Assembly (NCBI GenBank): GCA_002719295.1
Contig: PBHC01000011.1
Location: 4,132-33,889, forward strand
Reading direction: 5' to 3'
DNA length: 29,758 nt
Origin: Chloroflexota bacterium
Lineage (GTDB): Bacteria; Chloroflexota; Dehalococcoidia; Lucifugimonadales; Lucifugimonadaceae
Under the pieces are notes generated by a model. That model did not search any database and was not told the origin of the DNA. It saw nothing but the letters and a program-made list of their open reading frames with translations. Of the stretch, positions 12,581 to 18,180 are shown piece after piece (position 1 is the first letter of the stretch; every line of letters starts with the position of its first letter). The position numbers were made by a program, and so were the translations under genes.

Positions 12581-13600
12581 ATGAGAGTAAATATGAATAA
12601 AGATTTTTTTGTTTCAAATTCCCCTGGTATATTATTTTGTGCGTTTTTAGCAGTTATAATTCATATTGTTTTCACTCAAATTGAAACAAAAATAGTAGAT
12701 ACCCTTCTTACGGGCTTATTAATAGGAGTTATATTAAAAAACTTTAAAGTTCCTTTAGGTAGATTTGAAAAAGGAGTGAAATTCTCAGGCAAACATATCT
12801 TAGAATTTGCAGTAATGTTAATGGGCGCAAGCATTTTTTTACCTGATCTTTTTGAAAATGGATTTAAGATTTTTTTAGTTATAGTTTTCGGAATAATTGG
12901 ATCAATGTTAATTTCTTATATCTTAGGACATAAAATATTTAAATTAGACAAGAAATTAGCCACTTTGGTTGGTGTTGGAAATTCAATTTGTGGCAATTCA
13001 GCTGTAGCAGTTGTGGCACCTGTAATTAAAGCAAATTCAACTCAGATAGGGGCAGCTATTGGTATAAGTGCAATATTAGGAGCTAGTCAAATCATTCTAT
13101 TACCATTATTAGTACCTGTTTTTGGATTAGAAGATTTTCAATATGGAATAGTTGCAGGTCTATCTGTATATGCTGTAGCTCAGGTTGTAGCAGCATCATC
13201 AATTATAAGTCCTATGTCAGCTGATGTAGCTACTTTGGTCAAATTAACAAGAGTAATTTTATTAGCACCATTAGTATTAGTTCTTAGAGTTTTTTTCAAA
13301 TCAGAAAATGATGAAAATAAAGATAATAATTTTTCATCAAGTATACTAAAATTTTTACCTTGGTTTGTAATCGGATTTATTATTTTATCAGCACTAAGAA
13401 GTATAGAAATTTTTGACAAAGATCTTGGATTAAACATAAGAAGCTTTGCAAAGTATTTATTCGTATTGTCAATGGTTGCAATTGGATTAACTGTAGACCT
13501 TAAGGAAATTGCTAAAGTGGGTCCAAAAGTAGCTTTCACAATCATTGCAATAATTGTTTTTATGATAACTTTGGGTATTGTTTCATCAAATTTTATTTAA
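12581..13600 (+). CDS. YeiH/UPF0324 putative sulfate exporter family membrane protein
   Basis: GNSICGNSAV, YAVAQVVAA, ATLVKLTRV and PWFVIGF motifs. Confidence 0.9.
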   Translation: MRVNMNKDFFVSNSPGILFCAFLAVIIHIVFTQIETKIVDTLLTGLLIGVILKNFKVPLGRFEKGVKFSGKHILEFAVMLMGASIFLPDLFENGFKIFLVIVFGIIGSMLISYILGHKIFKLDKKLATLVGVGNSICGNSAVAVVAPVIKANSTQIGAAIGISAILGASQIILLPLLVPVFGLEDFQYGIVAGLSVYAVAQVVAASSIISPMSADVATLVKLTRVILLAPLVLVLRVFFKSENDENKDNNFSSSILKFLPWFVIGFIILSALRSIEIFDKDLGLNIRSFAKYLFVLSMVAIGLTVDLKEIAKVGPKVAFTIIAIIVFMITLGIVSSNFI

Positions 13601-15387
13601 GATATTAGAAATATAGCACTATCCGCATTTAAGTTTGGATCATTATCTATTTGCTTGTTATTTATAGTATCCAAATACAAAGATTCTTCAATATTGATAT
13701 TTTTTTCATTACAGAATTCCTTAAAATCATCAATTGAAGGGAATCTTACATTAGGTGTGTCGTACCAATTATATCCATACCATCCCTTAACTTTTGGAGC
13801 CTTGCCTTCATTAAAAAACATTTCTCTCATAGGCTTGAAGGCAAAATTTGGGAAAGAAACTATGCTGTATTTTGAGACTCTGGTCATCTGTTTTAATATT
13901 TTTTCAACATTTTTTATAGATTGAAGAGTTTGAGATAAAACAGCAACATCAAATTGTTCATCATAAAATTTCAATAAAATGCTATCTAAATCACTATGAA
14001 CTACTTGGATATCACTAGAAACACATTCAATAACATTATTTTGATTGATCTCGACACCTAAGGTGTTTTTAAATCCAAAACTAGTTAAATTATTAATTAA
14101 TTCTCCATTTTCACATCCAAGATCTAAAACGCTTGAATTCTTAGGAATCAAGTCTGAAATATACTGAAAATCAATCCTGTTTGTTAATCCTAATTTTACT
14201 TTAGTATTTATATTTTTCTTCTTTGTAGCTTTCTTATTAACATTTAAGGCATTATTAAAAAATGATCTAGTAATTTCTCCATACGAATCAATATCTGTAC
14301 TTAATAAAAAAGCATCATGGCCTGCATTTGATTTAATATTGCAATATGAAACATTTTTTGATTCTGATAAAAGAGCATCTACTAAATCAAATGATTGATA
14401 AGGAGGATATAACCAGTCACTAGAAAAACTTATTATCATCCATTTACATGATGAATTTGAAAGACTATTTTTTAGTTCTTTTTTTTCACTGCCTAAATCA
14501 AAAAGGTCTAAAGCTGTAGATAAAGTAACGTAACTATTTGCATCAAAGCGTTCAACAAATCTTTCTCCCTGATATGCTAAGTAACTTCCCACTGAAAATT
14601 TCTTTTCAAAACTTGTTGTTATTTCTCTAGGGTTATTTCTATCAATTTCAAATTTTTCATTCATAGATTCTCTAGATAAATATGTTATGTGCCCTAGCAT
14701 TCTAGCCAAAGCAAGTCCAACATCTGGTTTTTTTTCATCATCATAATAATTTCCAGCATTAAAATTTGGATCACTAATTATTGCATTTCTAGCAACAACA
14801 TCAAATGCTAATCCTTGAGTTGTCAATCTAGGAGAAGAAGCAATTGGGAAACATGTTTTTATCATTTCTGGATATTGAGTAGCCCATTCTAAACACTGGA
14901 AACCTCCTAATGACCCTCCAACAACTCCTAATAATTGCTTTATCTCTAAGTTATCAATTAAAGTTTTTTGTAATGAAACCATGTCTTTAATTGTGATCAC
15001 AGGAAAATCTGCGCCATAATAATCATTTGTTTTAGGGTTTTTCGAATTAGGACCCGTTGTCCCTCTGCAACTTCCCAAAACATTTGAGCATATAACAAAA
15101 TATTTATTTGTATCTATAGGTTTACCAGGTCCAACCATTATGTCCCACCAACCAGGTAAATCATTTTCGTCATGTTTTGCTACATGAGAATCTCCAGTAA
15201 TAGCATGACAAATCAAAATACAATTACTTTTATCAGAATTTAATTGACCATATGTTTCATAAGCTATTTCAACTTTTTCTAAACTGCCACCTCGTTCAAG
15301 TTTTAGGGTGTCATGAACCTCAAGTTTTCTTATATATTTAGAAAACTTATGAGTTCTTTGGTCATCTGAATTATTTATTTTTTCCAA
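13597..15387 (-). CDS. metX: Homoserine O-acyltransferase MetX fused to a C-terminal MetW (SAM-methyltransferase-like) domain
   Basis: CHAITG, GGSLGG, LARMLGHITYLS, SDWLYP and GHDAFL; a Lys-rich linker; then VLDLGCENG, VLSQTLQ, IVSFPNF and WYDTPN of MetW. Confidence 0.93.
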   Translation of the reverse strand: MEKINNSDDQRTHKFSKYIRKLEVHDTLKLERGGSLEKVEIAYETYGQLNSDKSNCILICHAITGDSHVAKHDENDLPGWWDIMVGPGKPIDTNKYFVICSNVLGSCRGTTGPNSKNPKTNDYYGADFPVITIKDMVSLQKTLIDNLEIKQLLGVVGGSLGGFQCLEWATQYPEMIKTCFPIASSPRLTTQGLAFDVVARNAIISDPNFNAGNYYDDEKKPDVGLALARMLGHITYLSRESMNEKFEIDRNNPREITTSFEKKFSVGSYLAYQGERFVERFDANSYVTLSTALDLFDLGSEKKELKNSLSNSSCKWMIISFSSDWLYPPYQSFDLVDALLSESKNVSYCNIKSNAGHDAFLLSTDIDSYGEITRSFFNNALNVNKKATKKKNINTKVKLGLTNRIDFQYISDLIPKNSSVLDLGCENGELINNLTSFGFKNTLGVEINQNNVIECVSSDIQVVHSDLDSILLKFYDEQFDVAVLSQTLQSIKNVEKILKQMTRVSKYSIVSFPNFAFKPMREMFFNEGKAPKVKGWYGYNWYDTPNVRFPSIDDFKEFCNEKNINIEESLYLDTINNKQIDNDPNLNADSAIFLIS

Positions 15388-15399
15388 AATTTTCCTCTT

Positions 15400-15432
15400 T
15401 TATTCAGCCCTAGAAAAACTAGGGCTGAATAA
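15400..15432. other. Perfect 14-bp hairpin between metY and metX
   Basis: TTATTCAGCCCTAG-AAAAA-CTAGGGCTGAATAA. No U-tract on the coding (minus) strand; abuts the metX SD. Confidence 0.85.
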
Positions 15433-15438
15433 TATTAT

Positions 15439-16725
15439 TTAAGATAAAGCTTGATTTATATCATTCTTTATATCTTCAACATTTTCTAACCCAATTGATA
15501 GTCTAATATATTCTGGGCTAACACCTGTTTCTGCTTGTTCTTCTGCGCTTAGCTGAGAATGAGTAGTAGAAGCTGGGTGAATAACTAATGTTCTTGCATC
15601 ACCTATATTTGCAACGTGACTAAGTAATTTTACATTATCAATAAACTTAACAGCAGCTTCTTTTCCTCCCTTAATCCCAAATCCAATAATAGCACCTTTA
15701 CCATCAGGTAAATATTTATTAGCACTATCAAAATCTTTATGAGATTTTAGACCAGGATAGTTTACCCAATCAACATTATCATGGCTCTCTAGATATTCTG
15801 CTATTGCTTGAGCATTTTCACAATGTCTTTCCATCCTCAGATGTAGAGTTTCTAGTCCTTGAATTGTGACCCAAGCTGCAAATGGACTCATAGAAGCTCC
15901 TGTATCTCTTAGCCAGTGTGTCCTTATGTGAACTAAATAAACTAAATTACCTAAAGGCCTTAAAGCTTCTTCTAAAACCGCTCCATGATATGAAGGTGAA
16001 GGAGAACAAAATTCTGGCCATTTTTCAGGGTTATCTGCCCACTTGAAATTTCCACTATCAACTATAACTCCTCCTATATGTGCTCCATGTCCTCCAATAA
16101 ATTTAGTAGTTGAATGAATAACTATATCTACACCATGTTCAAATGGTCTTAGTAAAAACGGAGTCATTACGGTATTATCACAAATAACAGGTAATCCATT
16201 TTCATGACTTATTTTTGAAATATTTTCAAAATCTGGAACATCATTTTTTGGATTCCCTAAAGATTCAAAATAAACACATCTAGAATTTTCATCAACTAGT
16301 TCATTTATCTTTTCTGGTTCTGATGGATCAAAGAATCTTACCTCTATTCCAAGTTTTTCGAAAGTTTGTGTAAACAGAGTCCATGTGCCTCCGTATAAAC
16401 TTGTTGAGGAAATTATATTTTGACCACTATGAGCAATAGTTAATATTGCTGCATTTATAGCAGCTTGCCCTGATGAAAAAGAAAGAGCATAAATTCCTCC
16501 ATCCAAAGCTGCAATTCTTTTCTCAAGCACATCATTAGTTGGATTCATCAATCTGGAATAAATATTTCCAAATTCTGCTAATCCAAATAAATTTGCTGCA
16601 TGCTCAGAATCATTAAATGTATATGATGTTGTGGGATATATAGGTACCGCCCTAGAATTAGTAGTAGGGTCGGGATCATATCCTGCATGTAATGCAAGTG
16701 TTTCTCTTTTATAGTTGTCTGTCAT
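15439..16725 (-). CDS. metY: O-acetylhomoserine aminocarboxypropyltransferase (sulfhydrylase)
   Basis: RAVPIY, GNIYSRLMNPT, HSTTKFIGGHG (PLP lysine) and ANIGDARTLVIHPASTTHSQL motifs; SD AAGGAG at 16737-16732. Confidence 0.95.
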   Translation of the reverse strand: MTDNYKRETLALHAGYDPDPTTNSRAVPIYPTTSYTFNDSEHAANLFGLAEFGNIYSRLMNPTNDVLEKRIAALDGGIYALSFSSGQAAINAAILTIAHSGQNIISSTSLYGGTWTLFTQTFEKLGIEVRFFDPSEPEKINELVDENSRCVYFESLGNPKNDVPDFENISKISHENGLPVICDNTVMTPFLLRPFEHGVDIVIHSTTKFIGGHGAHIGGVIVDSGNFKWADNPEKWPEFCSPSPSYHGAVLEEALRPLGNLVYLVHIRTHWLRDTGASMSPFAAWVTIQGLETLHLRMERHCENAQAIAEYLESHDNVDWVNYPGLKSHKDFDSANKYLPDGKGAIIGFGIKGGKEAAVKFIDNVKLLSHVANIGDARTLVIHPASTTHSQLSAEEQAETGVSPEYIRLSIGLENVEDIKNDINQALS

Positions 16726-16743
16726 TTTTTTCTCCTTTTAAAC

Positions 16744-16767
16744 AAAAAAACCCCCTTTTGGGGGTTT
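16744..16767 (-). terminator. Attenuator terminator in the metY 5' leader
   Basis: mRNA AAACCCCC-AAAA-GGGGG-UUUUUUU, lying between the leader ORF stop and the metY SD. Confidence 0.88.
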
Positions 16768-16806
16768 GCTAATTTTTTTTTTAGATCTAAATACTACATC
16801 ACAAAA

Positions 16807-16875
16807 CTAGGCTTCCCCCTCCGAGAAAGTCATCATCATCATGTTCATGTTCATTGTAAATCTAAATAATTCCAT
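16807..16875 (-). CDS. Methionine-rich leader peptide MELFRFTMNMNMMMMTFSEGEA (22 aa)
   Basis: ATG GAA TTA TTT AGA TTT ACA ATG AAC ATG AAC ATG ATG ATG ATG ACT TTC TCG GAG GGG GAA GCC TAG: six internal Met codons within eight positions, directly upstream of metY. Confidence 0.88.
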   Translation of the reverse strand: MELFRFTMNMNMMMMTFSEGEA

Positions 16876-16882
16876 AAAAAGA

Positions 16883-16912
16883 AGTATATTACGAAAAAAT
16901 AAACTTTGTCAA
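16883..16912 (-). promoter_or_regulatory. Sigma70-type promoter of the met operon
   Basis: TTGACA (16912-16907), 18-nt spacer, TATACT (16888-16883), then 7 nt to the leader ATG at 16875. Confidence 0.8.
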
Positions 16913-16971: not shown

Positions 16972-18180
16972 ATGAATCCTATTATTGAAGTTCTACAGAC
17001 TAAAGATTTCAAAAAACTCTGGTTTATTGGAACAACAGGAATGAGTATGCGATGGATAGAACAAATAGCTCTTGGGTTTTATGTTTATAAAATAACTCAA
17101 GACGAATTCCTAGTAGGATTAGTTTTCTTTTTTCGGAACATTCCTATGCTTATCTTTGGAGCTTTTATAGGAGTTTTATCAGACGAATTTAATAAAAAGA
17201 ACATCTTAAAAGCAACTTTGATTATGACAACCATAGTTTACTTTTGTTTGACAATAAGTTCCTTGCTCGGACAATTAAATTATTTTCAAATTTGCTTTGG
17301 AGCTTTTGCAGCAGGTCTTGCATGGTCTTTTGATTTTCCAATAAGGAGATCTTTATTAAGTGAAATAGTTGATAGAAGGTTGTACCCTAGTGCTATTGGA
17401 GTAGATATGACATCTAGTAATATAGCTAGAGTCATAGGCCCAATTTTCGCGGGAATAGTTTTACAACAAGTAACGCTTTTACCCATATATCTTTTTGGAA
17501 CATTACTGTTTTTTATGGCTTTTATTGCCTGTTCTAAAGTATCAGACAGGCCATTATTAAAAAATAAACACTCTAGCTCTATTAAGTTTTTATCAAAAGA
17601 CTTATTAGAAGGAATAAAATATATTTTTCAAAGCAGAACATTGATAACAGTATTAGTTGTAACTATAATTATGAATTCATTAGTTTTTACCTATCAAAGC
17701 CAATTATCAGTTATAGTGCAAAATAATCTTACAGATTTACCTATTATTCTTGGAGTTTTAGCAGCTTTAGAAGGTTTAGGGGCTACATTTGGCACTTTAT
17801 TAATTGCAAATTTTCCTTTTAAAAGAGGAATAATGATTTTTCTTTCAGGATCTTTTCTTTTTGGTTTTTGCATAATGGCATTTGCTTTTTCTCAATCCAT
17901 TACACTAAGCATAATTCTAATGATACTAGGCGGATTTGGAATGGCAGGTTTTGGGACTTTGCAATCAATATTAATTATTAGTTCAGCAGATCAAAAAATC
18001 AGAGGCAGAGTATTGGGAATACTAGCAATAACAATAGGAACCCAGCCTATTGGTGCGTTTCTGCTAGGATATTTTTCAAGAGAATATGGGTCAGCAACAG
18101 CGTTAAAATATTCAATATTTTTTGCTTTGATTCTATTAACTTTTGTAACTTTGTTGCAACTACGGAAGCAATCTAACTAA
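16972..18180 (+). CDS. MFS transporter (12-TM, MFS_3/EntS-like)
   Basis: GVLSDEFNKK motif-A variant, FDFPIRRSLL, ARVIGP and RGRVLG. Confidence 0.9.
   Translation: MNPIIEVLQTKDFKKLWFIGTTGMSMRWIEQIALGFYVYKITQDEFLVGLVFFFRNIPMLIFGAFIGVLSDEFNKKNILKATLIMTTIVYFCLTISSLLGQLNYFQICFGAFAAGLAWSFDFPIRRSLLSEIVDRRLYPSAIGVDMTSSNIARVIGPIFAGIVLQQVTLLPIYLFGTLLFFMAFIACSKVSDRPLLKNKHSSSIKFLSKDLLEGIKYIFQSRTLITVLVVTIIMNSLVFTYQSQLSVIVQNNLTDLPIILGVLAALEGLGATFGTLLIANFPFKRGIMIFLSGSFLFGFCIMAFAFSQSITLSIILMILGGFGMAGFGTLQSILIISSADQKIRGRVLGILAITIGTQPIGAFLLGYFSREYGSATALKYSIFFALILLTFVTLLQLRKQSN

Follow-up and report, generated by a model that had tools for sequence, protein, structure and literature searches.

Transcription of metY in a marine bacterium of the Chloroflexota (Dehalococcoidia; Lucifugimonadaceae) is probably controlled, together with that of metXW, by a ribosome-mediated leader-peptide attenuator that would read the level of charged elongator Met-tRNA. 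The locus lies on a stretch of 29,758 nucleotides of contig PBHC01000011.1 (assembly GCA_002719295.1), referred to here as the window, and positions are those of the window unless another contig is named. A methionine-sensing leader-peptide attenuator had been proposed at this site in an earlier note made from the letters of the DNA alone. This proposal has gained support from the conservation of the element, an indel in codon phase within its open reading frame (ORF), compensatory changes between its segments 2 and 3, a switch between alternative folds, a Cys-codon leader in the same genome and the presence of a SAM-II (S-adenosylmethionine-binding) riboswitch at metY of the sister genus.

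All parts of the element are read on the minus strand. Comparison with the consensus places a -35 hexamer, TTGACA, at 16912-16907, followed by an 18-nt spacer and a -10 hexamer, TATACT, at 16888-16883; the pair matches the consensus at 11 of 12 positions in a promoter scan and ends 7 nt upstream of the ATG of a small ORF (sORF). This leader ORF (16875-16807) consists of 22 codons, translated as MELFRFTMNMNMMMMTFSEGEA, and a UAG stop codon at 16809-16807. It holds six internal AUG codons, namely codons 8, 10 and 12-15 (16854-16831), of which four are consecutive. Segment 1 (CUUUCUC, 16829-16823) begins one base past the last Met codon, so the geometry fits masking by a stalled ribosome. Its pairing partner is GGGGAAG at 16818-16812, and the resulting 1:2 hairpin, CUUUCUC-GGAG-GGGGAAG, spans 16829-16812. 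Segment 2 (GGGGGAAGCCUAGUUUU, 16819-16803), which contains the UAG stop codon, may pair either with segment 1 or, across an A/U-rich spacer of 30 nt, with segment 3 (16776-16760). The latter is at once the 3' arm of the antiterminator and the 5' arm of the terminator, and the order from there to the end of the terminator is AAAAUUAGCAAACCCCC-AAAA-GGGGG-U7 (16776-16744), in which GGGGG (16755-16751) is segment 4, the 3' side of the terminator. The intrinsic terminator detected by a terminator scan (16767-16744) has the stem AAACCCCC/GGGGGUUU (16767-16748) of 8 bp, five of them G-C, a loop of AAAA and a U7 tract (16750-16744) after the stem. By reading of the sequence, the Shine-Dalgarno (SD) motif of metY, AAGGAG, follows at 16737-16732 and the metY ATG at 16725, and this SD is unpaired in every fold computed. 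When the sequence was re-read, every position given in the earlier note proved exact on this strand, and the three classical pairings that it had drawn (1:2, 2:3 and 3:4) were confirmed base for base.

The gene behind the element, metY (15439-16725, minus strand), encodes a pyridoxal phosphate (PLP) enzyme of the O-acetylhomoserine sulfhydrylase type (PF01053, E 2.5e-135). A metX-metW fusion at 13597-15387, also on the minus strand, joins a MetX-type alpha/beta hydrolase (PF00561, 3.7e-20) to a MetW methyltransferase-like domain (PF07021, 7.1e-50). It begins 51 nt after metY and is presumably co-transcribed with it.

In the proposed mechanism, transcription would begin about 7 nt after TATACT, which would place the 5' end of the RNA at or near the AUG of a 22-codon leaderless ORF. 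On an RNA carrying no ribosome, segments 1 and 2 would pair, segments 3 and 4 would form the terminator, and polymerase would halt at the U7 tract, which lies 16 nt upstream of the metY ATG. A ribosome running as far as the UAG inside segment 2 would lead to termination as well. When Met-tRNA is scarce, the ribosome would stall on the last of AUG codons 12-15 with its footprint over segment 1, and segment 2 (GGGGG...UAGUUUU) could then pair with segment 3 (AAAAUUAG...CCCCC) before segment 4 exists. This antiterminator would block the terminator, and metY, presumably with metXW, would be transcribed. The 1:2 hairpin is trailed by a U-rich stretch and is itself flagged as terminator-like by the terminator scan; it could act as a site at which the polymerase pauses and is brought into step with the ribosome. 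The sequence parts, their conservation, the alternative pairings and the compensatory changes in the 2:3 pairing are observed; where transcription starts, that the ORF is translated, that ribosomes stall on it, that termination takes place and that methionine has an effect are inferred from them. In three marine metatranscriptome runs from a single study, RNA contigs extend from the interior of metY through the terminator to 16776, 16782 and 16825, a weak hint that read-through transcripts exist, since such contigs cannot show ends or levels. No RNA contig covered 16826-17200, an absence that carries no weight.

The element is strongly conserved at metY. Searches of 13 genomes of the genus found the motif ATGATGACTTTCT-N5-GGGG in 12, adjoining metY each time and nowhere else; the thirteenth genome, 64% complete, had no metY match. 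In a pattern scan of metagenome contigs, the complete leader stood before metY at 31 of 31 marine loci. The poly-AUG sORF, whose absence from orthologous leaders would have refuted the proposal according to the earlier note, is kept in its orthologues. A 16-mer scan of genome contigs was unspecific, returning at least 120 stretches, and among the matches listed one (L080, from a public metagenome-assembled genome) had the full leader, which is identical to that of a genus member. The 44 loci collected reduce to 31 distinct sequences, of which one, truncated at its 5' end, was left out and 30 were aligned.

Among these 30 variants, the TATACT box and its 7-nt distance to the ATG are invariant, while the -35 box reads TTGACA in 24 and TTTGAA in 6. 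Conservation is likewise complete or nearly so for the ATG, for the AUG run with ACUUUCU, and for GGGGA.G.CUAG, AAA.UUAG, CCC, and GGGG with the T-run. Variation is found at 12 of 18 columns in codons 2-7, at 22 of 30 in the spacer between segments 2 and 3, and in the terminator loop. Constraint thus appears to fall on the pairing segments and the Met codons, as expected if these matter and the rest does not. The hairpin and T-run are present in all 30 variants and in the 12 leaders of the genus genomes. The leader ORF is predicted to be translated. All 30 variants keep its frame open; between them they encode 13 distinct peptides, with four to six internal Met codons per variant and an invariant closing run of three or four AUG codons. 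The sole indel within the ORF is one ATG codon; 3' of the leader stop codon, gaps are 1, 2 and as many as 9 columns wide in the alignment. An open frame, an indel in codon phase and an invariant ATG lend translation indirect support.

The features were also compared with chance. Terminator-like sites number 3, against 0.2 +/- 0.5 in shuffled sequence; promoter-like sites taken alone are not above chance (5 observed, 4.2 +/- 2.2 in shuffles). At least five ATG codons fall within eight in only 26 of the 2,541,486 eight-codon windows of the host assembly (G000; 1.27 Mb in 20 contigs, 81% complete, 30% GC) read in six frames. Of these, 18 arise where a His/Asp repeat (DHDDDD) at the end of a metal-binding protein on contig C3 (positions 1-800) is read out of frame, and the other 8 are the Met leader, split over contig C11 and its duplicate C17. 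Contigs C17, C19 and C20 are exact duplicates of C11, C12 and C1, and the copies of metY and its leader on C11 and C17 are 100% identical; numbers of gene copies counted in this assembly accordingly exceed the real ones. The duplex of segments 2 and 3 has an energy of -15.3 kcal/mol. Among 1000 dinucleotide-shuffled versions of the upstream leader 5 reach this value, as do 5 of 1940 stretches of 99 nt drawn at random from the genome. The unconstrained leader fold (-32.4 kcal/mol, z = -2.08), which 7 of 200 shuffled sequences match in stability, contains both the 1:2 hairpin and the terminator.

Evidence for the antiterminator comes from covariation. Across the 30-sequence alignment, the cells of the 2:3 pairing are 93.3% paired, a share that drops to 44-64% if the partners are shifted against each other by 1-3 columns, and the observed 2:3 covariation score was reached by none of 500 shuffles, a figure inflated by the relatedness of the sequences. 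At columns 115/154, U-A occurs in 24 variants, A-U in 3 and U.U in 3, the last of which is plausibly an intermediate state. At columns 102/168, G-C is found in 15 variants, G-U in 10 and A-U in 3. In the three A-U variants, U168 also faces an A in place of G in segment 4; with U168 matched by A in both segment 2 and segment 4, segment 3 covaries with both of its partners. A third 2:3 column pair with a compensatory change was counted, although it is poorly paired. RNAalifold, run without a supplied structure, returned the antiterminator as the consensus.

Ribosome footprints were imposed on the folds of the 12 leaders of the genus genomes; for the stalled state, the last Met codon was put in the A site, the 8 nt past it were masked and segment 4 was left untranscribed. 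With segment 1 masked in this way, the 2:3 antiterminator was the minimum free energy (MFE) structure in all 12, with the pairings GGGG:CCCC and UAGUUUU:AAAAUUA. Its energy ranged from -11.8 to -19.6 kcal/mol, compared with -8.4 to -14.9 kcal/mol for the terminator region folded alone, a value that comprises the last hairpin and, in some leaders, a small upstream hairpin. When the RNA was folded free of ribosomes, the 1:2 hairpin was the MFE structure in 9 of 12 leaders, and with the ribosome placed at the stop codon the terminator was the only fold in 12 of 12.

Several results weigh against this interpretation. In three of the 12 leaders, the antiterminator is narrowly the MFE structure even without a ribosome. 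At equilibrium, moreover, full-length RNA with a stalled ribosome imposed retains the terminator in 11 of 12, and a purely thermodynamic switch was rejected on this ground. Because the terminator persists at equilibrium, the switch must be kinetic, as it likewise is in classical attenuators. The fold switch foreseen in the earlier note therefore holds for nascent RNA lacking segment 4 and fails for 11 of the 12 complete leaders at equilibrium. Similarly, the covarying stems for which it had called were obtained in part only. Those of the 2:3 pairing stood, with the reservation that their compensatory changes amount to few lineage events among close relatives. The 1:2 hairpin, which lies within coding sequence and adopts two pairing registers in two subclades, showed no covariation. 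On the MAFFT alignment, the terminator covaried no more than shuffled sequence did, since loops of unequal length put its arms out of register there. Finally, low methionine also cuts the supply of initiating fMet-tRNA and could thereby favour the ribosome-free, terminating state.

The start of the leader ORF adds to these difficulties. No SD-like motif occurs in the 7 nt before its ATG in any of the 30 variants. The stretch varies in sequence (TCTTTTT, TGCATTT, TTCCATT, TCAATTT and others) at constant length. From the 7-nt distance between the -10 box and the ATG, and the lack of an SD, the RNA is inferred to start at or next to the AUG, so that the ORF is probably leaderless. Across 922 long ORFs of the host genome, SD-like tetramers are most frequent 5-8 nt upstream of the start codon. 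The genome as a whole showed no enrichment of -10 boxes at a distance of 6-8 nt from start codons, the mark that general leaderless initiation would leave. A leaderless start would thus be exceptional in this genome. The start without an SD is the most unusual feature of the model and also, as translation is only predicted, its main weakness. It had been overlooked by the earlier note, as had the necessarily kinetic nature of the switch and a second leader in the genome.

This second leader is a Cys-codon sORF, MLLYKSMNIRNLTNNGCICCCCMNSSRFL (...NNGCICCCCM...RFL), at 29570-29718 of contig C4 (locus L182, 1071-1219). It emerged from a scan of the whole host genome for sORFs with runs of one residue followed by a hairpin and T-run, a scan not specifically designed for leaders that have few Trp, His, Thr or Phe codons. 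An internal hairpin is followed by a CCCC...GGGG-U8 terminator, the fold has z = -5.06, and GGUUUCU of the leader is able to pair with AGAAACC of the terminator 5' arm. Directly after it come a gene for a YeeE-like Sulf_transp protein (PF04143, 6.8e-60), an 83-aa ORF and a rhodanese gene. The Cys leader precedes the transporter in all 11 transporter-bearing genomes among the 13 of the genus that were searched. Two leaders of one design, which place Met codons ahead of a methionine pathway and Cys codons ahead of a sulfur transporter, constitute the classical argument for sensing by the ribosome. Leu-rich sORFs with hairpins on contigs C8 and C9 were rejected, as no ORF of at least 100 aa started within 500 nt downstream.

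Among other explanations, the one that fares best is that the sORF is translated and acts through the terminator, but senses general translation capacity or (p)ppGpp, or arrests the ribosome by means of its nascent peptide, with the tail MMM-TF[SL]xG[DE][AV]. This is unlikely. The conserved C terminus TF[SL][EK]G[ED][AV] and an SD-like GGAGG inside the ORF speak in its favour, but the conserved C-terminal codons overlap segments 1 and 2, and the invariance of nucleotides there, third positions included (ACU UUC U), indicates constraint at the RNA level. The AUG run is then the one feature that RNA pairing leaves unexplained, and the Cys leader before a sulfur transporter favours the sensing of a specific amino acid.

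A metabolite-binding riboswitch for SAM, methionine or another ligand, with a terminator/antiterminator platform and a merely coincidental ORF, is less probable still. It is recommended by the missing SD of the leader ORF and by the sister genus. In the latter, metY is 77-79% identical to that of the window and a SAM_alpha (SAM-II, RF00521) riboswitch with a terminator occupies the same position; at the ten sister loci L012, L013 and L183-L190, nine matches exceed the Rfam cut-off of 36 (36.6-43.3 bits) and one reaches 35.3. The terminator module is tandemly duplicated at L185, L186 and L187. However, SAM_alpha gave no match in G000 or in three genomes of its genus that are 91-97% complete, in a search that matched both sister-genus controls, and in the window no Rfam SAM riboswitch class gave a match and no other Rfam family reached its cut-off. 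The conserved bases are nearly all explained by the AUG run and the three pairings, with no multi-helix aptamer among them. Nor would a riboswitch call for a frame kept in 30 of 30 variants, an indel in codon phase, or a replacement of Met codons by Cys codons that matches the downstream gene, as seen within the same genomes. The predicted Met leader holds the place that SAM-II has in the sister genus.

Very little speaks for the two remaining possibilities. A TRAP-like RNA-binding protein that chooses between terminator and antiterminator by binding AUG/UGA triplet repeats is highly improbable: the tandem triplets AUGAACAUGAACAUGAUGAUGAUG resemble repeat-type protein sites such as those of TRAP, but only 4-6 internal AUG (5-7 with the start codon) are available, these lie upstream of segment 1 and outside the antiterminator, start codon, frame and stop codon are all conserved, and no candidate protein emerged, although no search was aimed at one. 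Equally remote is an independent small RNA of about 130 nt, bracketed by the strong promoter-like site and the strong terminator, with metY transcribed from its own promoter, as the roughly 6 nt from the end of the U-tract to the metY SD cannot accommodate a promoter, RNA contigs run across the terminator into metY, and the 2:3 pairing is conserved with compensatory changes.

Leader-peptide attenuation is the textbook mechanism for the Trp, His, Phe, Leu, Thr and Ile/Val operons, whereas methionine genes are usually under the control of SAM riboswitches, T-boxes or proteins of the MetJ/MetR type. Attenuators based on Met codons are not known to have been described. A full-text literature search, in which subscription papers lay mostly outside and supplements were excluded, found no published Met leader-peptide attenuator, in agreement with the earlier note, which could name none. 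With the classical attenuators (trpL, hisL, pheL, leuL, thrL and ilv) the present element shares a run of codons for the end product, the 1:2, 2:3 and 3:4 pairings, a terminator before the first gene, a segment 1 that abuts the regulatory codons and a stop codon in segment 2. It differs in its AUG codons, the lack of an SD, a probably leaderless ORF and a monoderm-type, marine, low-GC host. Rfam leader models scored below their gathering cut-offs (Phe_leader RF01859, 24.8/55 bits; Trp_leader RF00513, 21.1/41; His_leader RF00514, 18.2/49), so the likeness is one of architecture and not of homology. Leader-peptide attenuation is thus the known part, and the sensing of Met, probably from a leaderless ORF, would be the new one.

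The closest mechanistic relatives in print are the leaderless polycysteine sORFs of mycobacteria, the 'Cys ribulon', which according to the abstract act by unmasking a ribosome-binding site and not through a terminator (Canestrari et al., 10.1101/834739). They have a run of codons for a sulfur amino acid, a stalled ribosome that remodels downstream RNA, and several loci per genome, as is proposed here for the Met and Cys leaders. They are leaderless, as the present ORF probably is. In contrast, they sense Cys, while the element described here would sense Met through an intrinsic terminator and an antiterminator, with the metY SD unpaired. In another study, Cys leader peptides precede cys/cbs operons of Actinobacteria without conserved terminator hairpins, Rho being suggested instead, and the authors state that they saw no RNA regulatory structure before methionine operons (Seliverstov et al., 2005, PMC1262725). 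The runs of sulfur-amino-acid codons in those leaders lie near the stop codon, as they do here.

RNA control of methionine genes has been described in proteobacteria. In a comparative study, metY is the core SAM_alpha target in alpha-proteobacteria, and a metXZ RNA element of beta-proteobacteria has six conserved regions, a pseudoknot and no ORF (Leyn et al., 2014, PMC4239095). SAM-II before metY shares gene and position with the Met leader but reads SAM by an RNA pseudoknot and has no ORF. The metXZ element resembles the Met leader in placing a terminator and antiterminator before methionine-synthesis genes and departs from it in its pseudoknot and missing ORF. Neither 'leader peptide' nor 'attenuat' occurs in the main text of that paper (PMC4239095).

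If the attenuator operates as proposed, the ribosome can read the charging of Met-tRNA although Met is the initiator residue. It would also follow that riboswitch and leader peptide have been naturally swapped at one orthologous gene between sister genera, and that sulfur-amino-acid 'ribulons' reach beyond mycobacteria to abundant uncultured marine bacteria. A further suggestion is tentative, and somewhat less probable than its converse: a leaderless Met sensor, which needs Met for both start and elongation, could behave as a band-pass, and with the Cys leader it could make up a two-member sulfur-amino-acid regulon in a streamlined marine monoderm lineage. The case also draws attention to sORFs that are missed by genome annotation.

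The host is of the monoderm type, marine and low in GC. Neither G000 nor five further genomes of the family, single-contig ones among them, gave a match to LpxC, and G000 gave none to Omp85. Elsewhere in the family, metY homologues are 50-54% identical to that of the window and possibly paralogues, and Cys-run frames often lie upstream of them. These candidate attenuators were flagged by a crude rule, at least three Cys codons in five. In one genus, five of five loci were flagged, with tandem ...SCCCHSR...; in another, two of two, with C[VI]CMC and a terminator; two more genera had a Cys run at 5 of 15 and 1 of 2 loci, respectively. A Cys-rich sORF was also seen by eye in one genome of another family (L015).

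The motif AGCTGCTG[CT]TGTCACTC (...SCCCHSR...), often in tandem, is found upstream of metY homologues at L016, L019, L204-L206, L192 and L203. It looks like a Cys-run leader peptide more than a riboswitch, and Rfam returned nothing for L204 at a permissive E-value or for L016 and L019 at gathering level. A different short frame, ...QYRMMR.RQ..., on the conserved nucleotides GTATGATGCG, precedes metY homologues at L018, L201 and L209.

The 247-nt gap upstream of metY is bordered on its other side by a divergent major facilitator superfamily (MFS) transporter gene (16972-18180, plus strand). Between metY and metXW, an inverted repeat of 14 perfectly matched base pairs with a loop of 5 nt (15400-15432) takes up most of the 51 nt. 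No U-tract follows this hairpin on the minus (coding) strand, and processing, stability or partial termination are among its possible roles.

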